Shown: in pieces, positions 2,796 through 59,230 of the stretch
How positions within the stretch are numbered: position 1 is the stretch's first letter
Layout: each line of letters opens with the position of its first letter
Source of the DNA: Octopus vulgaris
Taxonomy: Eukaryota
Assembly: GCA_951406725.2 (NCBI GenBank)
Contig: OX597815.1
Coordinates: 80,724,001 to 80,788,000, forward strand
DNA length: 64,000 nucleotides
Reading direction: 5' to 3'
Program-made: the position numbers and the translations under genes
The notes under the pieces: model-generated
What the model was told of the DNA's origin: nothing
Databases searched by the model: none
What the model saw: only the letters and a program-made list of their open reading frames with translations

Positions 2796-3137
2796 CTTTT
2801 CTACTGTATGCACAAGGCTCGAAATTTTGGGGGAGTGGGCCAGTCAATTAGATTGACCCCAATACGCAACTGGTACTTATTTCATCGACCCTCGGCAGAA
2901 TTTGAACTCAGAACATAAAGATAGACGAAATACCTATTTCTTTACTATCCACAAGGGGCTAAACACAGAGAGGTCAAACAAGGTCGGACAAACGGATTAA
3001 GTCGATTATATCGACCCCAGTGCGTAAGTGGTACTTATTTAATCGACCCCGAAAGGATGAAAGGCAAAGTCGACCTCGGCAGAATTTGAACACAGAACGT
3101 AGCGGCAGACGAAATACCGCTAAGTATTTTGCCCGGC
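2796..3137 (-). mobile_element. Dimeric tRNA-derived SINE (family A, Meta/Sauria-like core), 5'-truncated
   Basis: Minus strand carries GCCTTTCATCCTTTCGGGGTCGATTAAATAAGTACC and a second, partly deleted body. A 17-bp TSD GAGGRCGTTAGCATATT lies at 2779-2795 and 3138-3154. Confidence 0.85.
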
Positions 3138-5659
3138 GAGGACGTTAGCATATTGTGCATTCTTTTTTAAAACAACTGTATTATAGTTAAACATCTGCGC
3201 GCATATGCGTGTATGTGTATCTGTGTATGTGAATGTGTGTCTGTGTGTGTGTGTATGTATGAGGTTCAGACACGTGTATGTATGTGGATGGGAGTTATTG
3301 TAAAATTGAAGTGAAATTGTTTTTGTATTCCAGTCTACGGATTGTCTGACTTTCTCTCTTTGCCCGAGAAATCAAAAATCTGGTTTCGAGGTGGGAACAT
3401 GTTATTGCTAACGATGGCTTACGATATTTTGAATGAATAAATATATTTACATGTTTTATGCTGATTTGAACTCATTACATCAAATACGACATTACTTTTT
3501 GGTGCCCTTAATATGTGCGCATCCATGCATGTAAGCGTCGCTTAAATTTCATCAGTTAAAGAGCAATTTTAATTAAACTTCTTGTAAATCTTGTGTTCGT
3601 ACATTTTATTTTTCCTTTTCTTACTGTAAATCATGTACGCTCGCACAAGCTTAAAGGAAACTGCCTTGCGATGTCTGTTTCAGTTCTTTTGCGTTCTGGC
3701 TGCTATGCATGAGCGAACACTGATGCCACGCTGTCACGGATCAAGTCGGCGGTCTTTTTCTTCGATAAACAAAGATGGCGTGGAAAGAGAAGACGGGCAT
3801 GCTAAACTTCTTGAAAAAATATTGCTCAAGCCTGGACGTACACATACAGATACAAAGTAAACATCAACCTACGAGACCCTTCCATCTTTGCTACGAAATG
3901 TAATTTTTTCCTAACATACTTGTCTTCCATGTTTATGATTATTTATGTTTTAAAGTGTGATGGTTGATTGCATTCTGTATTATTTACTGAGACTAGCAAG
4001 AAAAGGGATGATGCATTATTGGAGCACTGCATTTTAGTTATACATATGGTGTACCGCTGGAGATCCCCTATTATAAGGTAGACAGTCCTTTTTCGATAAA
4101 GTTAAGAGGCGTGTTTGGAAGTTTGAAATTTAAGAAGTTCTACAGGATGTACACATTTAATATTTCTTTTTCTATGCGTTATAAACATCTTAAAACTTCT
4201 AGTGGTCGTAAGCTATGTATCGCGTCATTTCATCCTTGTTTGGAATTGTCAGCACGGCATATCACGAGGCAAATTTATTACGCTCAGTTTAGGAAGTTCA
4301 ATTTAGGCAATTCTTATCGAGAGAAAATAGTTTTCAATTTATAAGTCATACATGGGGATGCTGCTTTAAAAAAATACAAAATGGCTGATAAAGTGCTTTA
4401 GTTGCTGAGTAACTAAGTTTAAGGAAAGGTGGGAGTTATAATTATGGTGTCGGCTTTATACAGAGCTGTGATACATTTTGTTGGAGAGCGGGAAGAATAT
4501 GTCCACAAAACTTAATCACAGTAGGTGAAACGAAAGATCTTTGTAGTACACTATTTGGAATGTTCTCTTAAAAAGAGAATTTTGTGTTCTTAATTGCTAT
4601 TTAGTCCCGTGACAATATTTGTTAAGCAATCTACTGCCCAAAGGCATTGTAAGCTTGACTACTCAGGCTTTTTCACTATCATCTAAGACTAAATCACCAA
4701 ATGCGCCCTTCCTGTTGATTCGAAACAGATTCGGTCGCTCTTTGTAGTATACCGAACCACCATATGCAGGCTCTATCATTTGTGGAGCAGTCAGTGGTGT
4801 AACAAGATGTTTACACCGCAATCTTGTAAAGCTGCAGATCTCATAAATAAAAAGAAAGAAAAAAACAATAAAAAGACAAAAGGTAAAAAGAGTGTATTTT
4901 TGAAATCCATTCGTTTGTCGCAACAGTCAAAAACATAGAAAATTGAAAAATTTCGAACAGTTCCACTCATTAATACATTAATTGTTTGTTATCACAACCG
5001 ACAAAGTGTTTTATCTATAAGGCAATGTTTTGAACAGAAAGTTTTGTTTTGAAATTAGAAAAAATATAAACAAACAGTAACAACTTTTTTTCTTTGTTTA
5101 CATGTTTTTTTCTTTCTCTTTCTTTCTTTTCTTTTCTTTTCTTTCTTTCTTTTTTTTTTGCTATAAAGTTTCAAACTTCAAGAGAAACGTTACTACAACG
5201 AGTAATATATCTCGTGCATGTTTATAAATGCTTATGAATTAAAGAAAAGGTTGTCCAGTGTCCTATATTGAAAAAGATATTTAATTATTTTTTCAAAGTC
5301 GTCAAAACTGAACTGCGATTTTTCCGAAACAAAGACAAGAAACACCTACATACACAAAGATGCACCTGTACGCATGCATACAAATATCATAGGAATACAC
5401 ATATTAAACAACGTAGGAGTTCAGTAATCTCTAGTTTACCTTCTCCCCCTCCCCCGCCCCCGTTATAGCTATAGTCTGATGAAGTAAAGAAAGGACGTAT
5501 GTGTGAAAGAGACATAGTTTGAGGAACTGAAGTGACTAGTATCAGTGAGAGGGATTCAGTGTGACTAGTATCAGTGAGAGGGTGGGAAGAAACATAATGA
5601 CCGCTCATCTTCCTATCGTTTTCGTCATTAGTCTCAATTTCACACTTTGCCACACACTC

Positions 5660-6474: not shown

Positions 6475-6548
6475 CTATGTACCATTGGTTTCACTTGTTA
6501 ATATTTGCATATATGGACACGCAAATATCTGCAAGATCATCAGCATAG
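6475..6548 (-). ncRNA. Type I hammerhead ribozyme motif, canonical core
   Basis: Minus strand: CUAUG-CUGAUGA-UCUUG..(AUAUUUGC/GCAAAUAU)..CAAGU-GAAA-CC-AAU-GG-UA|CAUAG. Stems I, II and III pair and the cleavage triplet is GUA. Confidence 0.8.
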
Positions 6549-10965: not shown

Positions 10966-11314
10966 TGCAAATTGAAGGAAATTGTGCAATTATTTCTTGC
11001 AGTTCATGTTCTCTAGGTAGTGGTTCGCTTGTTAGCTCGTTAAATACTTGCGGTTGATTCTAAACTACTAAAAGATCACTCAACCAAGAAACTCACAGTT
11101 GTATTTAATCCAGAATTATATGATTGCAAAGTGAAATAAACTACACACAGCCAAGTCTTCTCACATATATTTAGATAGATAAATTCTATATGTAATGGCA
11201 CCTTTCTCAGTAGCGGTCAATTTCCTTTAAATCATATCCTGCTGTCTTAAAGAACTGGCGCATTATTGAATAACATAGCCCTAGACATATCCCTGAACTC
11301 ATGGTAGAATTTCT

Positions 11315-11532
11315 TATTTCTTTATTGCCCACAAGGGCCTAAACATAGAGGGGACAAACAAGGACAGACAAACGGATTAAGTCGATTACATCGAACCCAG
11401 TGCTTAACTGGTACTTAATTTATCGACCCCGACAGGATGAAAGACAAAGTCGACCTCGGCGGAATTTAAACTCACAACGTAACGGCAAAGCATTTCGCCC
11501 GGCGTGCTAACGATTCTGCCAGCTCGCCGCCT
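11315..11532 (-). mobile_element. Full-length monomeric SINE family A with TSD
   Basis: Head GGCGGCGAGCTGGCAGAATCGTTAGC, B-box-like GAGTTTAAATTCC and Meta-like core. TSD TCATGGTAGAATTTCT at 11299-11314 and 11537-11552. Confidence 0.9.
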
Positions 11533-12745
11533 TGAATCATGGTAGAATTTCTGTAACTTTGATCGTTAAATTGAATTAGCAAAAGCAACATGCATCTAAT
11601 TTAGGCATAAATCCTGGAGTTTTGGGGTGAAAATGTTACTCGATTATATCGACCGCAGTACTTGGCTGGCATTTATTTTATCAGCCTTCAAAGGAGGATG
11701 GGCAAAATTGCAAAATTGATCACGTTTTGGGTTTGAACTGAAAACATAAAGAACTGACAAAAATACTACAAGGTAGTTTGTCCGAGGTGCTAACGAATCT
11801 GAGAATCTACCACCCTTACAAATGAATAGCATAGTTTAACGTAGCAAGTTTTTATTTGGAGGTTGCAAGATATTTTACTGTTTCATCCATTCCAACAGGC
11901 CAACCCATTCCATTTACTCAAACACGCGTTAACAATAACGTAAATGTAATGTATATTATGCCAAAACAAAGAAAGGAAAAAGACCCCAAAAAAAAACAAA
12001 GCCAAAAATAATGAAGTCTAAAAAGATAGTGATGCTGTTGTTGGTGGTGGGGGAGGATGGTGGTGGTGGTGGTGGTGGCGGCGGTGGCGGAGGTGATGGT
12101 ATTGATGATGGTGATAATGATGACTGACGAAGGCCTGTGAGTTTTTTTGCACGTTGAGCGCGAAATCGTGTGTTAACTACTAGCCTGGCTAATCGTTTTT
12201 ACTCGCACCAACGTTATTTCTTACAAACGATCGTCATTGAAATAGAGAGCAGATGTGGTTAGCATGGAAAAAAACAATGAGGTAGCGGTTGAGTAAACCA
12301 AAGCATAGCGTGAAAGTAACTCTTGAGAGCGATGAAGCCAGATAGGGAAGATAGGGAGATATATAGGAAAGTGATTACTATAATATAGATTATTGTGAAG
12401 ATTCGTGGAAATAATAACGGAAAACCAAAACAGATCTGGAATTGTCTCCCGTACTTACCATGGTAATTAGAATAATATTAATCATTGAGCTAATGTTGTC
12501 TTTTCCTCACCACATAATTATTAATTAGATATTTGATGCCCATTACATTAAATATGTCAACACTAATTTAAATACTGTTTTTTCATGTGGGTGGCGTTTC
12601 TCAGTGGTTTATTATTTAAATTAAGGGGAAGGCGTGAGAGAGATAGCATGAGGAAACAAGGAAGAAGAGGAATGTCAGATAGGAAGAAGCACAGAGAGTG
12701 AGTGAGTGAGTGAGTGAGTGAGTGGGGGAGATAGAGATAGAGATA

Positions 12746-14557: not shown

Positions 14558-14959
14558 TTGATTTCAAATTTTAGCACAATACTAGCAATTCAGGAGGAGG
14601 GAACTTAATCGATTACATCGACCACAGTGTTCAACTGGTACTTATTTTATCGACCCAGAAAAGATGAAGGGTAAAGTCGATTTCATCGGAATTTGAACTC
14701 AGATCGTGAAGACGGAAGAAATACCTATTTCTTTACTACCCAGAAAGAGCTAAACATAGAGAGGACAAACGAGGACAGACAAACGGATTAAGTCAATTAT
14801 ATCGACCCCAGTGTGTAATTGATACTTATTTAATCAGTCCCGAAAGGATGAAAGGCAAAGTCGACCTCGGCGGAATTTGAACTCAGAACGTAACGGCAGA
14901 CGAAATACCGCTAAGCATTTTGCCCGTCGTGCTAACGATTCTGCTAGCTTGCCACCTTC
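14558..14959 (-). mobile_element. Dimeric SINE family A with TSD
   Basis: Two tandem bodies under one head. A 15-bp TSD AATCTTTGTATAATA lies at 14543-14557 and 14960-14974. Confidence 0.88.
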
Positions 14960-16189
14960 AATCTTTGTATAATAATAAAAATAAATACAACAGACTTCAG
15001 TCCTTAACTTTCTGTAGGGTAGCTTGCACACCACTATAACTGAGCGTTAAAGAAAGAAAACGACAACTTCCAAGGAACATAAGATTTGTCCGGAGAGGCC
15101 AGGAAACGCAACATGCTAAGTTTCTCAGACAGATGCATATTCTCGTTATCTGTGCCTGCGCACAGAGTGTTTTCTCAAGCAGAGAGAAGAATGGAATAGC
15201 CAGAGTTCTAAAAATGTGTACCAAACCCAAACATTTGACCAGCCACTTACATGCCATAGCTCTTTTCGATCAGGGCTGACACAGACTATTCAACAACAAA
15301 AATATAAAAGGCAATAAACAGACTATAAATTGGAAGACACTTTTTCAAGTCACTCTTTCCATTTCTCAGAGTAAATAAACAGCATTCTTGAGTCCCTAGT
15401 AAATATCTAGTGACGTAGCTTGTCTCTTCAAACTGAAATACTACAAACTTAAAATTTGCTTTCACATTAGCAAAACTTAAACGTTTGCACGTTTGATTTT
15501 CCTCTTTTGTTGCCTTTTCAAATACAAATATTGTTTTAGTTTTACCAAAGCCACTTTTGAACACCAATATCCTTTTCATTAGACCTCTTTTAAAGCTCAA
15601 GTAAACGATAATGATAATTCTTCTTTATATTTATATTTTTTGCTACAAGTTTGCAGAACTTCCAAATTCCTCTACCCACCTCCACATCCACATGCACATC
15701 AACATCAACAATTCAACCCTCCTTTGTTCCTACTTCCTTTTGGCTCGTCTACTCTTTAAGAAGTTACCCGCATTTAAAAAAAAAAAAGAAAAAAAACATT
15801 CAGTATTCTGAGATGTTACCACTGCCATAGCTTAACAGATTTATTCTAAGTTTTTTCCAAACAGTTTTAAAAGTTAGTCACATAATACTGAGGTATGAAA
15901 ATCTTTACTCCCAGTTGCACGGTTCCTACATACAGAAACACTATAGACAACACGAAGAATTCACTGAGCACACTTCTGAACGAGGGTTCTACGGGCATTC
16001 TCATTCGCTTTTCACCCACTCTTTACCGCTCTAGCCTCACAATATGTGCATCCCTTCCCTGTAAGTTCTCTCGATGCACCTATGTTTGGTCCTTTTCGTC
16101 AACCCTTATTGTATTTGACATTTTTCTGCGTTAAATACGTTACTCAGTCCTTTTTAAACAAATCTTCAACCACCTCGCTATTTTCGCTG

Positions 16190-22400: not shown

Positions 22401-23204
22401 TTGGAAATTTTAATGATAGAAATTTCTTGTTATTTGTCAATGTTTTTATTGTTTGGACGTATTTATATAAAACGTCATTGTTGATTACCTTTGTGTTATA
22501 TGAAATGTGTTTTTTTGCGGCATGGGGTCGATTTTGTTTTCATTCCTTCGTGGTCTATGAAATAAATTACCAGTCAAGTACTGGGGTCAGGGAAATTAAT
22601 TAACACCCTCTCACAAATTTTAGAACTTGTGCCAATAAAAGAAATAATAATTATTATTATTACGTTGAAATTTTATTTCCTGTCATCGGAAGCTAACAAA
22701 GAGAAAAGGCGAAAAACATTTACAAAACATTAAAAAATATTTGACCTTGTTTGCCCATGAGTAGAGAAATAATGACGAGTGTTCATTATTCTATCACTTT
22801 GCTCAACGTATAGACTTCTTAGTGTTTTGAGTTTGTTTTTTTCTTATCTTGTCTGAGAATGATTGTCGCCATATTAGAATGTCCAGTGTATCATTTATGT
22901 TTCACGTGACATCATGAGATCTGTCGGAAGTAAAATCAACCTAATAATTTTCGTATCTATAATTTATTAATCACCGGTGACACTGCAAACAGGAATTATA
23001 CATGTGTGGTGGGATGTATATATACATGTGTGTGTGTGCGCGCGTGTGTGTGTGTGTGTACATAAACATATATATCCACAACACAAAACAAATATACAAA
23101 TATGAAAATTAAAATAATGTTAATGATAATAATAGAGGGCTGTAAGGACTTGAAAGACTGCTGAAAACTTGTGGATACCTAAGGTTAAAACCAAAACCAA
23201 AATA

Positions 23205-23410
23205 ACAATCCTTTCTACTAAAGACACAATGCCTGAAATATTAGAGGAGGGGACCAGTCGATTACATCAACCCCAGTGTTTCACTGGTACTTATTTTATC
23301 GACCCCGAAAGTATGAAATCAAAGTCGACCTCGGTGGAATTTGAAATCAGAACGGGCGAAATATCGCCGAGCATCTAGCGTGCTAAGGATTATACTATCC
23401 CACGACCTTA
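23205..23410 (-). mobile_element. SINE family A copy
   Basis: gtcgattacatcaaccccagtg...ctggtacttattttatcgaccccgaaag...gtcgacctcgg. A second partial copy follows at 23435-23545. Confidence 0.8.
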
Positions 23411-23763
23411 ATAAAAATAATGATAACAATAATCCTGTATACTGTGGGCACAAGGCTTGAAATTTTGGGGAGAGGTTAAGTCGATTACATTATCGCCACT
23501 GCTCAATGGAAACTTATCTTATCGACCTCGAAAAGATGAAAAACACGAGATTGTAAAGACGATTGTAAAGAATGTAAAGACTAAAGAAATACTGGTAAGA
23601 ATTTTGTTCAGCGTACTAGCACTTAAAATGCTGATTGTCCAGACTTTGCCCAAAAGAGAGTATATCAAAAGGCTAGATCGACTCGATAACTATGTCTGTG
23701 GAATGTTTTTATTTCCAAGTTAATTCATAGAAGTAGCATACGGATGTACCAATTTATTTATTT

Positions 23764-26486: not shown

Positions 26487-26974
<488 letters not shown>

Positions 26975-28417: not shown

Positions 28418-30179
28418 CAATCAGCATCACCCCCACCTCACCACCACTACCACCTACACCACCACCACAACCACAATCACAACCACAATCTTGACTAGCA
28501 CTAACCCTAAACCTAACCACCAACAACACCACCATCAATGCCACCACCCCAACGATCACGATGATGATGATGATGATTATGACGACGACGACAACGATGG
28601 TGACGACGACGATGGCAACAATGTTGACGACGACGACGACAACGATAATGATGATGATGATGATGATGATGATACTCTACATCGTCTTTGCCTTCATCTT
28701 TCTTTTGTTCGCATGTGGCAGGACCGGCTGAGCGCCTGATTAAACGCCTTACAAGTATTTAGTTTCTTTCCTCGACACTCTGAATTCAGATTCTTCTAGA
28801 ACCGACTTTCCACCTTTTATCACACACTGATGTCAATAAAATAACTACCGGATATATCCTCGACTGCGCCTCTTTTTTTCCTTCTCCACCAACTCCACAC
28901 TACAAAAAAAAAAACGATGTTATGATCTTCGTCAAAGCTTGAAACTTTTATTGATTTATTATTCATATTTGATTGCTGGTTTTCATCGTCTTTCCTCCAG
29001 TCTGTAATAGTACGAATATTAATTGCGTAGTTAAAAACTATCACATGACGACTGTCTGCTGTTTTATTATTATTATTATTATTATTTTTTTTGTATCTAA
29101 TAAGAATATTAAATGCGTATACTCTATACACCTTCTTCTTTACTCTTTGATGTAAATTCTAAATTTTCAAACCCGCCTCAACTTAATCTGGAAGGGATTG
29201 TCTCTTCTATAATAGTTGACCACCAGGGTACACCATGTATTTGAACGAACACAAATTATCATTTAGTTATATTCTGATAAAAGATTGAAATAATGTGAGA
29301 ACATATTCACTGTCTGTACACTTGTGGTTATGAACATCTCTAAAAAGACGTTCGATTCGATTTAGTCTAAACATTATGGAAGCTTTAAACAACGTATATG
29401 GCTACAGATAACTTTAAAAATTGCTGTCAGCATAAAACCGAGTTGAATAAAGAAAGATGGGTTATTACCGTAAATTTTCGCCTTTAGTCATCGCAATCTG
29501 ATTTTTAAAAAAAATTATATTTAATCCGTTTCTTCACAGATATCTACGTTTGTGTTTGTCTCTTGTTTCCTGTATGCTATACGGGTGTTCGACAAATCTT
29601 CCTCAAGAGGACCATACGTCATATGCAGTCACTACATTGTATTCGTGGAGATGGAATTTTAATCACAACTTCCATGTTCATATACATAAAAGAAGATATC
29701 ACGTGGAAGTATAATTCGGAGATATAAACCAATATTTTACTGAATTTCAATTCAATTCCACTTGCAGAGAAAGATAATTAAGACAGACTACGAGATTTAT
29801 TTTTCCTCCATTTAACTCAGAAAATCTGAAATAATTGCCGAGTCCAGTGAACTGTTGAGATCGATGGAGAGACTGTGATGTTGTTCAACGTCAAGGGTAA
29901 GGTTTTTAAATCTCAGTAAATTGATTAACACGGTATCACTCTTCATTTTCAGATGTAACCTCTTCACTGTTACTTAAATAAAACTCGGTGCGAGATAGAA
30001 TCAGGGAAACCACAGCTGTTTAATTTCTCTCTCCCTATAAATGCTGAGCTATGTCCATCGTCTAAAGAAAGCATTATGAGGAATAATTTACGAAAAGAGA
30101 TAAGCTTTTGCTAGGTTCAGTACAGCATTTCAACTCTATTTCACTTTGCAATCATATTACTTGACTTACATCCTTAATA

Positions 30180-30990
30180 ATAAACACCCAAAATTTACAT
30201 TGTAGTAGCCTTGACATTCACGCAGACGAATTGAGTCGGTTCCACCAAGTGAATTTACTGCATCACGAACGGGAACAGACCACACCGACATCGCAAACGT
30301 CATACGCGTAGATTGTAAACCAGTTGCAATTCCAACGGTGGACGACAAACACATCAGGACCAGATATGTATTCAAGAGTCTACTTGATTGTATCAATTCT
30401 CATTTCCGGCCGTTCATTTTGCCATTTTCGCCATTCAAGTACGATCGCTTCAAGTGTAAGTTTTCTGTCTGGATAATGTGCGTAACCAAATTAAGATTTT
30501 GAGCAAGAGCTGCTGAAAGAAGTCCATCTGACAGCAAGATGTCACCATCAATGATTTGGACTACGCCGACAATCTCTCAATAATTACCGACAGATACGTA
30601 GATGTCCAGCGGGTTCCACGCCGTAGTGTGTACTACCCTCATGTTGGCATACAAATCAACGCGGCCGACAGAAAAGTTACATCTGCTTGCATTTCATCTT
30701 CTGAAAAGATTCCTTTCATATTCGGTGCCAAAATTCAGGAAGAGGTATCTCAATTCAAACAATTCTGTGCTACTTTCATAGTTATATGGCCAGAATAAAT
30801 ATAAGATTTAAGTCTGTTTCAATCGTGCAGGTGATGCATTCTGGTGTCTTCAAAGCTGACTTTCATCTAAGTCAGAGATTTATGTAAAGGCAAAAATTCA
30901 CATCTACCTAGCATTTATGTGTTTGTACTATTCTGTTCCACAGCTGATAGACATGGTCAGTTGAGAGAGTTTGTGTTTGCCGATTGTTTG
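30180..30990 (+). mobile_element. RTE-clade LINE reverse transcriptase remnant
   Basis: 'INDLDYADNLSII...VGIQINAA..K...EEVSQFK...RAGDAF..L...SEIYVKAKIHIY'. Boundaries approximate. Confidence 0.7.
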
Positions 30991-31023
30991 TGCATTTTTA
31001 TATTATATTGGATGTTTTATCTT

Positions 31024-31105
31024 CAGCTAGCAGGCCTCTGCTACTCTAGACCGATGATGGGCAAAGACCCTGAAACATGCGTGTCTCTAGATGCAGGCCT
31101 AGCTG
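31024..31105 (+). ncRNA. Extended type I hammerhead ribozyme motif (U4C core variant)
   Basis: UCUAGA-CCGAUGA-UGGG-CAAAGA-CCCU-GAAA-CA-UGCG-UG-UC|UCUAGA. Stem I extends through bulges to CAGCUAG/CUAGCUG. Confidence 0.75.
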
Positions 31106-32230
31106 TTGGGGGTATTTGTCTCCCCTTCGTAAATATATAAGGACACAGGAAATGTGTCAAGGCCGACAGGAAGAGTCGATGCTTCATTGGGCTAAACAGC
31201 GGTGGTGTAATTCCCTTACTGTCACGTTAAGTTGACAGTATACAACCACTATATCGCTCCACCACCGTACATATCTCTATGAGATATTTAGAAATTAATA
31301 TTTCTGATTTTTATATTAAATTGTCTCACTATTCTTATTCAACAATTCCAATTATAGCACATTCGGTGCCATTGATGGGATACAACCAATTTCTGGTCCC
31401 AGCCCTTTTACCTACGAAAGTTAATGATTTTGAAAAGTGGCAAAATATCACAAATAAATACTCCCATTTTCCGCTTTTTCCACTATATGTCTGGTAAAAA
31501 AATAAAAAGAACACAAAATTTACATTTTCGCTTCCATTGTTTAGTACAGAAGAAAGATAACTGACCACGGTATTCGTATGCTCTCTATAATTGGTGTACT
31601 TGATTATTTTGATGTTTAGTTTGAACATCTGGGAGTGAACGCCTGTAGAAAAAACGTGGGCACGGGAGGGATTTCCAGAGGGATGACGTTCTGAGAAAGA
31701 AGAGTTAAGGAAAAGGGTTAATTGGAGCGTAGACAGTGAAAGAGAGAACGGTTAAGGAGGAGAGATTTGCACTGGATACGGGGTGTTATGCGGCTGGTTA
31801 GTTCGGGACGCAAAGACCGTTGAAATAACAAAACACTTTCCTAATACTGACCGAATCGATAGAATGAGGAGAGAACGTATATGTGAACTGCTGCATAACA
31901 TAAAGTTCCAGGAGGGTTGAGTTTGTATATTAACGTTACGCTAATATCATTGGAAAATGTCCTAAGGGAATATCCAGTAGAAAGGCTTATTTTCCCACTA
32001 CGTATAAAATGCGGTTTCTGTTTTGATTTATGCCAACAAAAAGCTACAAATACGTCCGCTTTAATAGATTAATTTTGGGGACTGCCCCAACGACAAAGAA
32101 TTCTTTCACAGCTACGAGGCCCAGACTTATGCTTCTATTACAACTTCAGTAACTTCAGAAGCATTTCGCTTTAAAATCTGCACTTTGATCACTAAACTGA
32201 TACACATACACACGCACACACGTAGTAGCG

Positions 32231-35372: not shown

Positions 35373-35801
35373 ACTCTTTTACTCTTTTACTCTTTTACTT
35401 GTTTCAGTCATTTGACTGCGGCCATGCTGGAGCACCGCATTTAATCGAGCAACTCAACCCCTGGACGTATTCTTTTGTAAGCCCAGTACTTATTCTATCG
35501 GTCTCTTTTGCCGAACCGCTAAGTAACGGGGACATAAACAATATCGGTTGTCAAGCATCGGTTGTCAAGCAACGCGAGGGGGACAAACACAGACACACAA
35601 ACACACACATGCATAGATATATGTATATACATATATACGACGGGCTTCTTTTCAGTTTCCGTCTACCAAATCCACTCACAAGGCTTTGGTCGGCCCGAGG
35701 CTATAGTAGAGGACACTTGCCCAAGGTGCCACGCAGTGGGACTGAACCCGGAACCATGTGGTTGGTAAGCATGCTACTTACCACACAGCCACTCCTGCGC
35801 C
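35373..35801 (-). mobile_element. Full-length SINE family B
   Basis: Head GGCGCAGGAGTGGCTGTGTGGTAAG, B-box GGTTCAGTCCC and tail CAGTCAAATGACTGAAACAAGTAAAAGAG. Confidence 0.92.
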
Positions 35802-46289: not shown

Positions 46290-46688
46290 GGTGCAGGCGT
46301 GGCTGTGGCAAGAAGCTTGCTTTCCAACCACATAGTTCTGGGTTCAGTTTCACTGCATGGCATCTTGGGTAAGTGTCTTCTTCTATAGCCTCGGGCCCAC
46401 CAAAACCTTGTGAGTGGATTTAATAGACAGAAACTGAAAGAAGCCCGTCGTATATATGTGTGTGTGTATGTGTGTATGTGTGTCAGTGTCTGTGTTTGCT
46501 CCCCACGTCGCTTGAAAATCAATGTTGGTGTGTTTGCGTACTCATAACTTAGCGGTTCGGCAAAAATGACCGATAGAATAAGTACCATACTTACAAAGAA
46601 TAAGTCTTCGGGTCGATTTCTTCGACTAAAAATACCTTTAAAACAGTGCTCCAGCATGGTTGTAATCAAATGACTGAAACAAGTAATA
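46290..46688 (+). mobile_element. SINE family B with (GAA)n-expanded tail to 46802
   Basis: Homologous to 35373-35801. Confidence 0.88.
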
Positions 46689-48307
46689 GAAGAAGAAGAA
46701 GAAGAAGAAGAAGAAGAAGAAGAAGAAGAAGAAGAAGAAGAAGAAGAAGAAGAAGAAGAAGAAGAAGAAGAAGAAGAAGAAGAAGAAGAAGAAGAAGAAG
46801 AATTGATCGATGGAGGAGCAGCTCAAAGAAAAATTGCAGAAAAGAAACGGTGAGGGATTTTGCAAACGAATGTGAAAAATAGGCCTTAGAAGAATAACTT
46901 ACACTTATAAAAAATGAAAATGCCCCAGTAGGGCAACAGCAAAATACTGCCAATAGGGAAACACACAAATTATGAATTGCCTGTCTAAATTGTGTCCTCA
47001 ACCTACTTGGTCAAAGGATGCCCATTCATATTGGTCATGATTGTTATTCTCGCGGACATTTCAGCAAATTTTACTGGGGCGTAAGAGCAGCATTTCGCAC
47101 ACCGCACTGAGTTGCCTCTTCAAGTGGTATATAAAATAGTTGATAAGGTCTAGAGAGAAAGTAGTCTCGAGAACCAGTCTATCACACATTCTCTTTTGTT
47201 GTAGATAGCAGATAGAGGGAAACTGTCTGTTATTTCTAGCCAAATGAAAAGGGCGAGATTATCTTCATGATATACAAAATTGATAGCTGGGGACTTTCTA
47301 CAAGCAAATACACACGCAAACACAAAGACACTCATCGAAAAGAATGAGAATATATTTTAACCACATATCATAAGAAAGCAGAATAGAAAAGGTGTGGTAA
47401 ATGCTTTATTCTCTTCCTTAATCCACTATATACGCTCCTCCCTTCTTTTCTTTGTTATTTCTTACTATTATAAAACTAATGGATAATTAAGTGTTCCATT
47501 TCAACAATTCGCCACCTGCATATGCGTTTTGGTCCCTTGGGCTTTTTCAGTTCAGATATCAGTCCATGAGATTCAACAAAGAATTATATTTCAAGGTTAA
47601 AAGAAAAACGTCATAGTCCATACATTGTTAATCTGGAGCGAATATCATGGACAAAACAGAGTGTAGTTATAAGAAACAAAGACTTTATGAGATGATGAAC
47701 AACTCGTAGATGACCAACTGCTTAAAATGGATAAAATTGCGTAAATTTCTTTCGTCATTTTTTGCAGCTACAAACTGAGGCTTACAAAATCATGGGACGT
47801 CTGCAGGTGAATTTTGTGCAAACGTACATCATCCTCGTTTCTCTTACCTTTGGTCCAGTAGAACATCTCCATGTGACAGCAGGGAAATTTAAAAAAGATG
47901 CACCAACAATCGGATGATGTAAATTTTCACCTGATCAGACAGTAGTAACGTGAAATGAAGTAACTTGCACAAGGGTACAAGGCACCGCTTCGTCCAGAAT
48001 TCGAACCTACGACCTGACGATCGTGACCCCAAAGCTCTAACTGCTAGATTATAGTTATATTTGCGCGCACTTGCGTGTGCGAATGTATTATGATGCATGA
48101 ACATCCACATATCAATCGGCAGTAATAGCAGTTTCGTGCATGACACTTTAGAAGCTTTGTTAATTGCTATGCATGAAACTTTCACCACCAGAGTAAACTC
48201 TGCAGTTATTCTGTGCATATACGATGATATATATATATGTGTGTGTATGTGTGTGTGTGCATGCATTTATATATATGTATATGTATGTATGTGTATACAC
48301 ACACACG

Positions 48308-53629: not shown

Positions 53630-53778
53630 GACAGCTGAGACAGCTTCCCAACCACATTGGTCTTGGTTCAGTCACACTGCGTAGCAACTTGGGCAAGTAT
53701 CTTCTACTATAGCTGAGGGCCGACTAAAGCTTTGTGAGAGGATTTGGTAGACGGAAACTGAAAGAAGCCTGTCGTATG

Positions 53779-53840
<62 letters not shown>

Positions 53841-54201: not shown

Positions 54202-54209
<8 letters not shown>

Positions 54210-55110
54210 ATTAATGATATCAGGGTAATAAAGATTTTAGAAATTTTTACTACCACTGGCCTAGCGTATAGAAAAATTTGTCAATAGACTATATATTATT
54301 CATATAAAATACAGTGTATATTTAAACACATTAAGAGGTTTCCATCATAGGAATCCTTTACGCTAGAAAGAACAGCTAAAATCCAAACCACTAATTAGGG
54401 ATAAATTCTCGAAGGGAATGAAAAATAAAAACATTTAAAAACATTTATTTTATTTACTAAAATAACTAAGAAACTATGGTCCAAGAAAGAGATGGTAAAT
54501 GTTTTTATTTTTCATTCCCTTCGAGAATTTATCCCTAATTAGTGGTTTGGATTTTAGCTGTTCTTTCTAGCGTAAAGGATTCCTATGATGGAAACCTCTT
54601 AATGTGTTTAAATGTACACTGTATTTTATATGAATAATATATAGTTTATTGACAATTTTTTCTATACGCTAGGCCACTGGTAGTAAAAATTTCTAAAATC
54701 TTTATTACCCTGATATCATTAATTATGTATAATGATTTCTGGTAGATTCGTTCGAAGAATTTGCCGGCATCTTTTCTGCTGTCAACAAAAAAGACTGCGC
54801 TTGCGCAATGGATTTGCAAAAAAAAAAAAAAATTTTAATGTATAAGCAATGAGGCACATGCTGGATTGGCCTCGTTGTTTATATATTTAATCTTTGGCGT
54901 CCATGTTGATGAAGACTTCGCCTGGTAAACCATTTTATTTACTAAAATAAGTCAGAAACCATGGTCTAGGAAAGAGATGGTAATGTTTTTAATTTTCATT
55001 CCCTTCGAGAATTTATCCCTAATTAGTGGTTTGGACTTTAGCTGTTCTTTCTAGCGTAAAAGATTCCTATGATGGAAACCTCTTAATGTGTTTAAATGTA
55101 CACTGTATTT
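54202..55110. repeat. Inverted + partial tandem repeat block (PLE-like architecture)
   Basis: 54202-54436 is a near-perfect inverted copy of 54496-54731, and about 54445-54625 is repeated directly at 54931-55110. Confidence 0.9.
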
Positions 55111-55129
55111 AATATATATATATATATCT

Positions 55130-55320
55130 GGTGTGTCTGTTTGTCCCCCCAACATCGCTTGACAACCGATGCTGGTGTGTTTACGTCCCCGTTACTTAGC
55201 GGTTCGGCAAGAGAGACCGATAGAATAAGTACTAGGCTTACAAAGAATAAGTCCTGGGGTCGATTCGCTCGACTAAAGGCGGTGCTCCAGCATGGCCGCA
55301 GACAAATGACTGAAACAAAG
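55130..55320 (+). mobile_element. SINE family B 3' half
   Basis: Near-identical to the 3' halves of other copies. An inverted, decayed 5' half follows at 55345-55500. Confidence 0.85.
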
Positions 55321-55874
55321 AAAAAAAAAATATATATATATATATACGTACGATGGGCTTCCATACAGTTTCTGCATTTTAGCTCACAAAACATTGAACG
55401 GCTCTGGACTATAGTGAAAGACACATGTGCTGTGTGCCGTGGGACGGAACCTAGAACAGCATGGTTGCAAAGAGAGTTTCTTAATCACATAGCTATTCCC
55501 ACATCTTTTACTGCAAATATGTGTTCGTGCCAAAATCAAAAAAAATAATATATATTTTGGTGAAACCATATAGAAAAAATGCTATTGAAATATGGCGCAG
55601 AAAAAATATGACGACATACACTTCTAACACATATATGATTAACTTAAAATATTAAAGTCAAATAATTGAAGTGAGAATCTCATAAAAAGAGAAAACTTCT
55701 ATTAAAATCTGATTAGTTATTTGTATTCGCTTATATACATCAGGAGTACATTGCATATATTGCATTCGTGCAGGAAGCCCCACTCATACAGATGCAAAGA
55801 GAGAAGAGAGAGAAAGAGAGAGGGAGAGGTGGGGGATAGCTCGACAGATACAAACAGACAGACAAAGAGCGAGG

Positions 55875-55957: not shown

Positions 55958-56385
55958 TTCTTTTATCTTCAACTTGTTTCAGTCATTGAATTGCGGCCAT
56001 GCTGGGGCACCACCTTGAATGGTTTTAGCCGAACAAATCGACCCCTTTACTTATTTTTTAAATGTGGTACTAGCCCTTTTATTGAACAGATACGTTACAT
56101 AAAAAACGTAAACAAACCAGCACCGGTTTGATCAAACAGTGGAGGAGGTGGGACAGGCACAAACAACACAACTACACACTCGTACATATACAATATGTAC
56201 ACATATACACATATATACGTACAACGATCTTCTTTTAGGTTCTGTCTATTAAATCTACTCAGAAAACTTCGGTCGACACGGGGGCTGAAATAGAAGACAC
56301 ATATCCAAGGTGCCATATATTGGGACCTGAAAGTCGAACCATATGATTGGGAAGCAGACTTCTTACCACACAGCTATATCTGCGC
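55958..56385 (-). mobile_element. SINE family B, diverged copy
   Basis: cttgtttcagtcattgaattgcggccatgctggggcacc...ccaaggtgcc...cttaccacacagc. Confidence 0.8.
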
Positions 56386-58276: not shown

Positions 58277-58976
58277 TGCTGGTGTATGTCAGCTTTAATC
58301 AGATACACCTATAATCAGATAGACCTTTAAGCAGATAGACTTATGACATTTGTGACCATCTCGTCAGATTTTTGGTGTTTTCAGTCATGGTGTATCTAGG
58401 ACGAACACTATCCTTAAGTCGTTTAAAAAAAGAAAAACACTCGGGAGCAATCTGAGGTTGAACGACCACGTACGTAGAGCCTTCTTCTGTTCAAATAAGT
58501 AAAAGTGAAATACTTGGTTTGAATTAATCAAGTATTTCGCTTCCACCAAAATCTGTCGCCTTGTGCCAGTGCCAACATTCATAATCACCTCAATCAATCC
58601 CTACTAACGCCATCGTAAAATTGGTCTCCCAACACCAACCAACGTGGCTTCTTTTTCGTCTAGTTATTCTTCTGTGTCAATAAACCGTTGTTTTCTTAGC
58701 GGTGAGTAAGCAGAAATAATTGAAAGTTGCACTAATTTACCTTCTTACAACATTTGTGTTTATTCACTCCCTTGATGTTCCGGAGTTCAAGACTGGCCAG
58801 CATCGATTTTCACTTTCATCCCTCCACGCTTCGTAGAATATGCACCAATCAGCTGAAGAAATTGATGATAATCGTCTACAGCTTTCCAATACAACAATTT
58901 TGTTCGACTTTGTCAATATGAGAATTGCTCATGATCAGTTAGTAGCATAATCATTACTGTTTCAATAGTAGGATTA

Positions 58977-59230
58977 AAGGCGGCGAGCTGGCAGAATCGT
59001 TAGCACGCCGGACAAAACTACTTAGCGGCCTTTCGCCCACTTTACGCACTGTGCTCAAATACCACTGAGGTTGACATTAACTTTCATCTCTTTCGGAGCC
59101 AATACAATAAGTACCAGTACAGTACTGGGCGGGGGGAGGGTCAATGATATCGACTATCCCCCTCCCGCAAAGTTTCTGGGAGAGGAATGCTATTGATATC
59201 ATTCCTCCCAGTGCCTGTAGTAGAAAGGGT
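58977..59230 (+). mobile_element. SINE family A
   Basis: AAGGCGGCGAGCTGGCAGAATCGTTAGCACGCCGG...ATAAGTACCAG. Further decayed copies lie at 58700-58900 and 59585-59960. Confidence 0.8.

Follow-up and report, generated by a model that had tools for sequence, protein, structure and literature searches.

Hammerhead-bearing repeats are known in many animals. Animal retrozymes are tandem, circle-forming elements that have been argued to be PLE derivatives, with a length of approximately 150-400 nt and a GC content below 45-50% (PMC7229834; PMC7761336; 10.64898/2026.07.22.740005). A mollusc example, from the mussel, reaches about 5000 copies (PMC7229834; 10.64898/2026.07.22.740005), the retrozyme families of Xenopus often include dispersed monomers, and 8 of the 9 retrozyme dimers assayed did not cleave (10.64898/2026.07.22.740005). 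The SINE-like hammerhead elements of schistosomes have a Pol III promoter (PMC6765202), and type I hammerheads of metazoans characteristically have a palindromic helix III that permits dimers (PMC4209133). The 5' ribozymes of RTE-clade LINEs are HDV-like (Ruminski 2011, cited in PMC5786205); RTE ribozymes also include truncated twisters (PMC7761336), and twister variants occur at the 5' end of Perere-3 (PMC8501958). Among natural core variants, U4C is found in a viroid and is considerably slower in vitro, with enough activity left for viroid infectivity, and U10.1-U11.1 is the best tolerated natural mismatch (Perreault 2011, PMC3088659). For cephalopods, PMC11662667 reports no active twister among those assayed, and 10.1101/2021.04.23.441226 describes the Naiad PLEs of Octopus as lacking hammerheads. 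In the literature searched, no active small ribozyme is found in cephalopods, nor is a cephalopod hammerhead repeat found in the accessible literature, a search that subscription papers, Repbase and Dfam lie outside.

The locus described here is located in a window of 64 kb, by which the whole stretch of DNA analysed is meant. The host is likely a cephalopod, presumably an octopod, judging from the appearance of another repeat in the window. The hammerhead is best read, with a probability of about 0.6, as forming the 5' end of a repeat of 300 bases that is dispersed in high copy number and, at this locus, lies between target-site duplications (TSDs) inside an older, inverted RTE remnant. On this reading, the copy likely represents a non-autonomous retroposon of the animal retrozyme or Sm-alpha kind, present as a solo monomer and with a ribozyme predicted to be slow. 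All of the hammerhead elements named in the initial annotation are found at the positions given there, and the motif is composed as follows:

31045..31091, plus strand: hammerhead type I core (sequence and descriptor scan), with the predicted cut after 31085
31045-31050 / 31086-31091, plus strand: stem I, TCTAGA/TCTAGA
31051-31057, plus strand: core CCGATGA, in which position 4 (31052) is a C
31058 and 31071, plus strand: U10.1-U11.1 apposition, a U at each position (sequence)
31059-61 / 31068-70, plus strand: stem II, GGG/CCC, 3 bp, with the 6-nt loop CAAAGA
31072-75, plus strand: GAAA
31075-31084, plus strand: stem III and loop, ACA-TGCG-TGT, with a 3-bp stem
31083-31085, plus strand: GTC, predicted cut site

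Three helices surround the core, helix I is open, and GAAA and a UH cut site are present, as in the type I layout. The core itself reads CCGAUGA (31051-31057) in place of CUGANGA, and the U4C change reported previously is indeed present as a C at 31052. The bulged stem I of about 20 bp is also recovered, with 18 pairs within 31024-31105 and 30 pairs over 31011-31120 when the hammerhead fold is enforced. In this predicted fold, the bulge 31042-31044 and the 6-nt loop II sit where a loop I-loop II contact expects them, an arrangement that may resemble the tertiary contact of Sm-alpha. An alternative register of stem II, with an extra U and a G.U first pair, is 3 kcal/mol worse and is rejected. 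The U.U pair that the initial annotation describes as common to the hammerhead at 31,045 and a motif at 6.5 kb (minus strand, ~6480-6543) is present in both, and it is nothing new because U10.1-U11.1 is already known in natural hammerheads. This second type I hammerhead-like motif (6480-6543, minus strand) has a canonical CUGAUGA, a U.U first pair and a long stem II hairpin. Its core also translates as DYADDLA, an RT catalytic motif, with a weak tblastn match at 6577-6530 (E 0.3), and the motif may possibly be of RT-remnant origin or a coincidence.

A descriptor in which one core substitution is allowed gives one match in the real window, the hammerhead at 31045..31091, and in dinucleotide-shuffled windows it gives matches with a stem I of at least 5 bp in 2 of 30 and of at least 6 bp in 1 of 30. 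The folding z-score of 31015-31115 is -2.67, with 2 of 200 shuffles equally good. The covariance-model scan proposed earlier yields no Rfam hammerhead match at the gathering score, and a search of the window and the motif against Rfam returns nothing even at E up to 10. In an energy model without tertiary terms, the hammerhead-competent fold lies 4.5-5.5 kcal/mol above the minimum-energy fold, which is predicted to bury the hammerhead core. The ensemble cost of the competent fold, again without tertiary terms, is 5.2 kcal/mol with C4 and 3.95 kcal/mol with U4, a predicted widening of the misfolding gap by approximately 1.2 kcal/mol. Stem III and its loop are self-complementary over all 10 nt, including two G.U pairs (self-duplex of 10 bp, -12.5 kcal/mol), and because of this self-complementarity, cleavage as a double-hammerhead dimer may be possible.

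The hammerhead occupies the head of an insertion with the following parts:

31011..31306, plus strand: inserted repeat copy, 296 bp, 44% GC, with the hammerhead at its 5' end (depth step, loose ends, TSD)
30994..31010, plus strand: left copy of the TSD, 17 bp, 16/17 identical to the right copy
31307..31323, plus strand: right copy of the TSD, 17 bp
31018..31141, plus strand: extended bulged stem I, in which 31018-31050 pairs with 31086-31114 in this copy
31141..31306, plus strand: 3' body, predicted to fold into a pair of small hairpins, a helix of 8-9 bp and, at the end, two A+T-rich hairpins

The insertion is assigned to 31011-31306 because a 17-bp direct repeat bounds the high-copy stretch. 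In a control, none of 600 box pairs reaches 15 bp and the best is 14, with 22 A+T-rich pairs included. The fold of 31011..31306 has a z-score of -3.56, which none of 200 shuffles equals. In 13 contigs of run X4 (described below), the 5' arm is approximately 30 nt longer and complementary to ~31112-31141, as seen in the loose-end consensus before 31018, and compared with such copies the present one has probably lost at least 30 nt at its 5' end. At the opposite boundary, other copies run on into short (ATTT)n-like tails (loose ends behind 31296). The predicted helix of 8-9 bp in the 3' body, 31200-31208 with 31259-31267, encloses a further hairpin. A possible second pairing, 31189-31199 with 31251-31259, crosses the helix 31200-31207 / 31260-31267 and is strengthened by family alleles at 31197, 31251 and 31258; a pseudoknot and an alternative fold are both conceivable. 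When the 3' body is parsed by hand against the consensus of twister, pistol and HDV-like ribozymes, required elements are missing each time. A scan with the B-box consensus of Pol III promoters, with at most 1 mismatch, finds no B box on the plus strand of the element, and no tRNA is found either.

The abundance of the repeat is evident from the contigs of four public runs (4 of the 24 listed), which were placed on 30451-31650 at 80% likeness; runs X1, X4 and X9, with the organism labels A, B and D, are DNA-type or untyped, and run X8 is only guessed to be RNA and is not used as evidence of transcription. None of the 24 listed runs is recorded as RNA. The depth over the RTE remnant is flat at 76 (X1), 49 (X4) and ~6.5 (X9), and right of 31370 it is 64, 52 and 6, respectively. 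Over 31011-31290 it amounts to 5e4-6e5 (X1), 3e4-6e5 (X4) and 1e3-4e4 (X9), exceeding the flanks, both of which are single-copy, by 300- to 10,000-fold, and 3032, 2610 and 1245 contigs align to the region in these three runs. Because the flanks are single-copy and the insertion is far deeper in three runs, the insertion belongs to a dispersed high-copy family, the other copies of which are without the RTE flank of the 31011..31306 copy. Summed contig depth is not equal to copy number, and hundreds to thousands of family copies is the safe reading. The unique flank contigs end at 31047 and restart at 31267-31269 in X1, X4 and X9, and this identical break indicates that the same insertion is common to labels A, B and D, the flanks of which differ by approximately 3% (16/602 letters for B).

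Within the insertion, the depth at 31065 is ~1/5 (X1), 1/8 (X4) and 1/15 (X9) of that at 31249, a lower head than body depth that 5' truncation or divergence of the head would give. The loose ends at both boundaries are mixed, with an agreement of 0.63-0.74 and no single shared flank, and one in X4 enters (AT)n. A divergent subfamily also has a head end composed of GUC plus stem I, as seen in one X8 contig with a loose end before 31108. None of the 4 joints listed connects the 3' end to the head, a list that covers linkers of up to 40 nt. In X4, a single contig passes from 31272 to 31108 over 7 intervening letters and may represent a partial tandem of a divergent subfamily.

The 64-kb window contains no second copy of the element, and exact-pattern scans of metagenome, prokaryotic genome and viral contigs, in which DNA of this animal would not be expected, give no match. 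Its other repeats are the following:

54202-54437 / 54496-54731: inverted repeat, 236 bp, 98% complementary, 58 nt apart
2898-3138, 11303-11548, 14689-14973, 23201-23545 and 58972-59129: repeat family F1, ~250-300 bp, 75-89% alike
26487-26974, 35380-35801, 46290-46690, 53643-53795, 55146-55324 and 55959-56385: repeat family F2, ~430 bp, with a central microsatellite

The inverted repeat at 54202-54731 is possibly a MITE or a PLE-type inverted insertion, and a further partial copy of it is present at ~54961-55127. Some F1 copies contain internal partial duplications, and F2 is presumably an abundant octopus SINE.

The repeat is dispersed and abundant, the 31011..31306 copy is flanked by a TSD, the coverage is weighted toward the 3' end, and the family is independent of the RTE; the high copy number, the 17-bp TSD and this independence support the separate retrozyme or PLE-type fragment that was one of the two origins suggested initially. 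For the retrozyme kind, the length of 296 bp and the GC content of 44% fit those of non-coding animal retrozymes. The element is also a short, dispersed retroposon with a TSD, seen at one copy only, as is a SINE of the Sm-alpha type, and the Pol III promoter or tRNA-related region of such a SINE is not found. The tandem arrangement that defines non-LTR retrozymes is absent from the listed joints, which counts against the retrozyme reading, and the 31011..31306 copy is solo. The predicted misfolding and the flat X8 depth across the cut site (11.5 before and 13.1 after, in contigs that cannot show RNA ends) count against an active ribozyme. No partner element is found at the locus or by Pfam over six frames of 28900-32200.

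Under the preferred reading, the repeat would be transcribed from a host or tandem context, and cutting at GUC 31085 would trim the resulting read-through or multimeric RNAs. The trimming would be slow from U4C and would possibly occur only as dimers via the self-complementary stem III. A borrowed reverse transcriptase/endonuclease, for which the candidate source is a PLE according to the literature or else a LINE, would prime at the A+T-rich 3' end (target-primed reverse transcription), and copying would proceed toward the head and mostly stop early. Copies like the present one, with 75 nt retained upstream of the cut site, may go back to RNA that escaped cutting or to a template that was circular or multimeric.

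C4 probably predominates among copies at least 80% alike because 31052 is absent among the variant rows listed (40 of 76, from contigs at least 80% alike) while its neighbours 31065, 31068 and 31101 appear in the same rows with shares of 13-40%. The variants 31068 (C>T) and 31101 (A>G) retain G.U-compatible pairs, and 31065 falls in loop II. The existence of a second allele at position 4 is likely because of the bubble geometry in run X8: contigs 17 and 18 both cover 31022-31111 (contig 19 begins at 31082), contig 18 is the window sequence with C4, contig 17 differs from it, and for 31-letter words these coordinates fit a bubble whose first difference would be at 31052 and whose last would be at 31081. 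A CUGAUGA homologue is not directly seen among the contigs of runs X1, X4, X8 and X9. By analogy with the viroid variant, a ribozyme with U4C likely cuts slowly, whereas the initial annotation pointed to the architecture of fast hammerheads such as Sm-alpha.

U4C may, on the other hand, have killed the hammerhead in a founder, after which the repeat spread with the ribozyme as a passenger. The considerable loss of activity caused by U4C (PMC3088659), the misfolded state favoured by the predicted energies, the unchanged X8 depth across the cut site and the lack of an Rfam match are consistent with such a dead relic, but apart from position 4 neither the core nor the helices are damaged, the family variants listed are compatible with the helices, a more distant subfamily retains the GUC-stem I junction, and the energy models leave out the loop I-loop II contact, and we consider this origin unlikely. 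U4C could also be a selected brake in a SINE-like family that is headed by a hammerhead instead of tRNA, 5S or 7SL RNA, a speculative proposal that is itself doubtful. Slow cutting would free some RNA from host transcripts and spare sufficient uncut RNA for copying back with the ribozyme intact; the monomer would keep spreading without tandem arrays, whereas a fast U4 copy would be inserted without its head. If true, this model would imply that, in thousands of copies within a cephalopod lineage, the ribozyme has been slowed in favour of transposition.

The preferred reading of a non-autonomous monomer can further be weighed against an autonomous source. The repeat may be the terminal pseudo-LTR (pLTR) of an autonomous PLE, with most copies 5'-truncated to the pLTR and the long fold-back being a PLE-type inverted segment. 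pLTRs carry type I hammerheads and are mostly solo (PMC4209133), inverted 5'-truncated copies and a microsatellite bias are PLE traits (10.1101/2021.04.23.441226), retrozymes have been argued to derive from pLTRs (10.64898/2026.07.22.740005), and at this locus helix III is palindromic and a loose end in X4 runs to (AT)n. However, the minimal PLE hammerheads described in PMC4209133 have a helix II of 7-8 bp and a short helix I, whereas the motif at this locus combines a helix II of 3 bp with a helix I of 6 bp plus a long extension; the loose ends at the boundaries have no flank in common, and neither a Pfam domain in the six frames of 28900-32200 nor an ORF for a PLE RT or GIY-YIG is detected at the locus. 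This origin is rather improbable.

A SINE-like element mobilised by a LINE, with a hammerhead head instead of a tRNA and possibly with the help of an RTE-clade LINE elsewhere in the genome despite the unrelated flanking remnant, would account for the 17-bp TSD, the fixed 3' end, the short-repeat tails, the terminal hairpins and a body that is covered more than the head. Bipartite non-autonomous elements arise from only a few clades, RTE being one of them, and the short motif 31189-31199 is similar to the portion of the Ceph domain that derives from RTE (PMC5786205), but the latter match is at chance level, with 5 in the window at no more than 1 mismatch versus 2.9 expected. The missing plus-strand B box and tRNA, together with a 3' body that is not significantly like the F1 family (121-324 of 500 shuffles score equally), also argue against this reading, and it is quite unlikely.

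The RTE remnant into which the repeat is inserted consists of two parts:

30535..30995, plus strand: inverted 5' part of an RTE-type ORF (YADD to LLYGCETW region), single copy at 80% likeness
30305..30490, minus strand: C-terminal part of the same RTE-type ORF, with its 3' end facing left and thus not toward the hammerhead

Residues 754-882 of a 1044-aa APE+RT protein match 30535-30919 on the plus strand (tblastn E 8.5e-11), a further RTE match lies within 30900-31010 (~1/200 shuffles as good), and residues 947-1015 of ~1040-aa proteins match 30472-30305 on the minus strand (E 0.001-0.007; score 70, reached by 0/100 shuffles). The peptide of the YADD region matches RVT_1 clusters at 0.96, and 5 of its 6 matches in a representative library are RT proteins, two of which carry DUF6451; the sixth is an unrelated repeat protein. 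The longer relatives are single-ORF APE+RT proteins of ~1000 aa, and it is on this architecture that the RTE label of the remnant rests; membership of the RTE clade beyond that architecture is our assumption. No domain is found by Pfam in the six read-through frames of 28900-32200, the remnant included, a word-index protein search with the remnant gives 13 candidates, none at E up to 1, and a search of the PDB returns nothing.

In protein coordinates, one part almost continues the other, while in the DNA they lie back to back, and judging from this arrangement the remnant is a 5'-inverted insertion of twin-priming-like pattern. Twin priming is known from L1 as a source of 5'-inverted insertions. 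By its coordinates, the repeat appears to have landed at, or no more than ~30 bp from, the outer end of the inverted part. The placement of the hammerhead directly downstream of an RTE remnant is therefore correct in that the remnant is real and its plus-strand piece adjoins the repeat; the hammerhead does not lie beyond the 3' end of the RTE because the RTE copy is rearranged and that piece is its inverted part. To the right of the insertion (31324-31520), no RTE similarity is detected. A candidate TSD of the RTE itself is present at 30186-30203 / 31511-31528 (16/18). That the hammerhead is a 3' ribozyme of the flanking RTE, the same-strand link raised because the motif directly follows the plus-strand RT remnant, is highly improbable: the RTE flank is single-copy whereas the hammerhead repeat is hundreds- to thousands-fold deeper in three runs, which refutes the link for copies at least 80% alike and answers in the negative the question of whether other copies also lie 3' of RTE sequence, the repeat carries its own 17-bp TSD and has no fixed terminal position on the RTE, and it interrupts the RTE ~120 codons short of a C-terminus that lies on the other strand.

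The class of hammerhead-bearing repeats is thus not new, and the RTE link, the striking part, fails. An abundant family nevertheless escapes the canonical descriptors and Rfam because of one core change, which suggests that hammerhead censuses undercount animal genomes. With C4 and probably further alleles at that position, the dispersed copies, in their thousands, form a natural experiment that bears on how hammerhead elements keep their upstream half during retrotransposition and on which autonomous element moves them.

Compared with the described systems, the repeat resembles animal non-LTR retrozymes (Cervera and de la Pena 2020, PMC7229834; Li et al. 2026, 10.64898/2026.07.22.740005) in its type I hammerhead of canonical size and its non-coding, self-paired, high-copy unit of ~300 nt with less than 45% GC. 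Unlike these retrozymes, it shows no tandem junction and has a 17-bp TSD at the 31011..31306 copy, a fixed 3' end with short-repeat tails in the family and a U4C core, probably in most close copies. As in Sm-alpha and Sj-alpha of Schistosoma (PMC6765202), a short, dispersed, retroposon-like repeat carries a type I hammerhead, but the present repeat is without a B box or tRNA-like region, its core is non-canonical, and the hammerhead forms its head, enclosed in a hairpin 30 to >50 bp long. With the hammerheads of PLE pseudo-LTRs (PMC4209133) it shares type I, a short palindromic helix III and mostly solo copies, whereas the short helix II and long helix I are the reverse of the minimal PLE hammerhead and no PLE ORF is nearby. 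Like the 5' ribozymes of RTE elements, it is a self-cleaving RNA motif beside RTE sequence; unlike them, it is of another ribozyme class, is not at an RTE 5' terminus and was inserted independently. The same two departures, U4C (in a viroid) and U10.1-U11.1, are found among the natural core variants of Perreault 2011 (PMC3088659), which are single RNAs, whereas here both changes occur together in a genomic family of hundreds to thousands of copies, presumably throughout it. The repeat satisfies part of the definition of each known system and fails on, or leaves unmatched, one feature of each, and among the mobile elements with hammerheads that other animals are known to carry, it would be a variant not described before.
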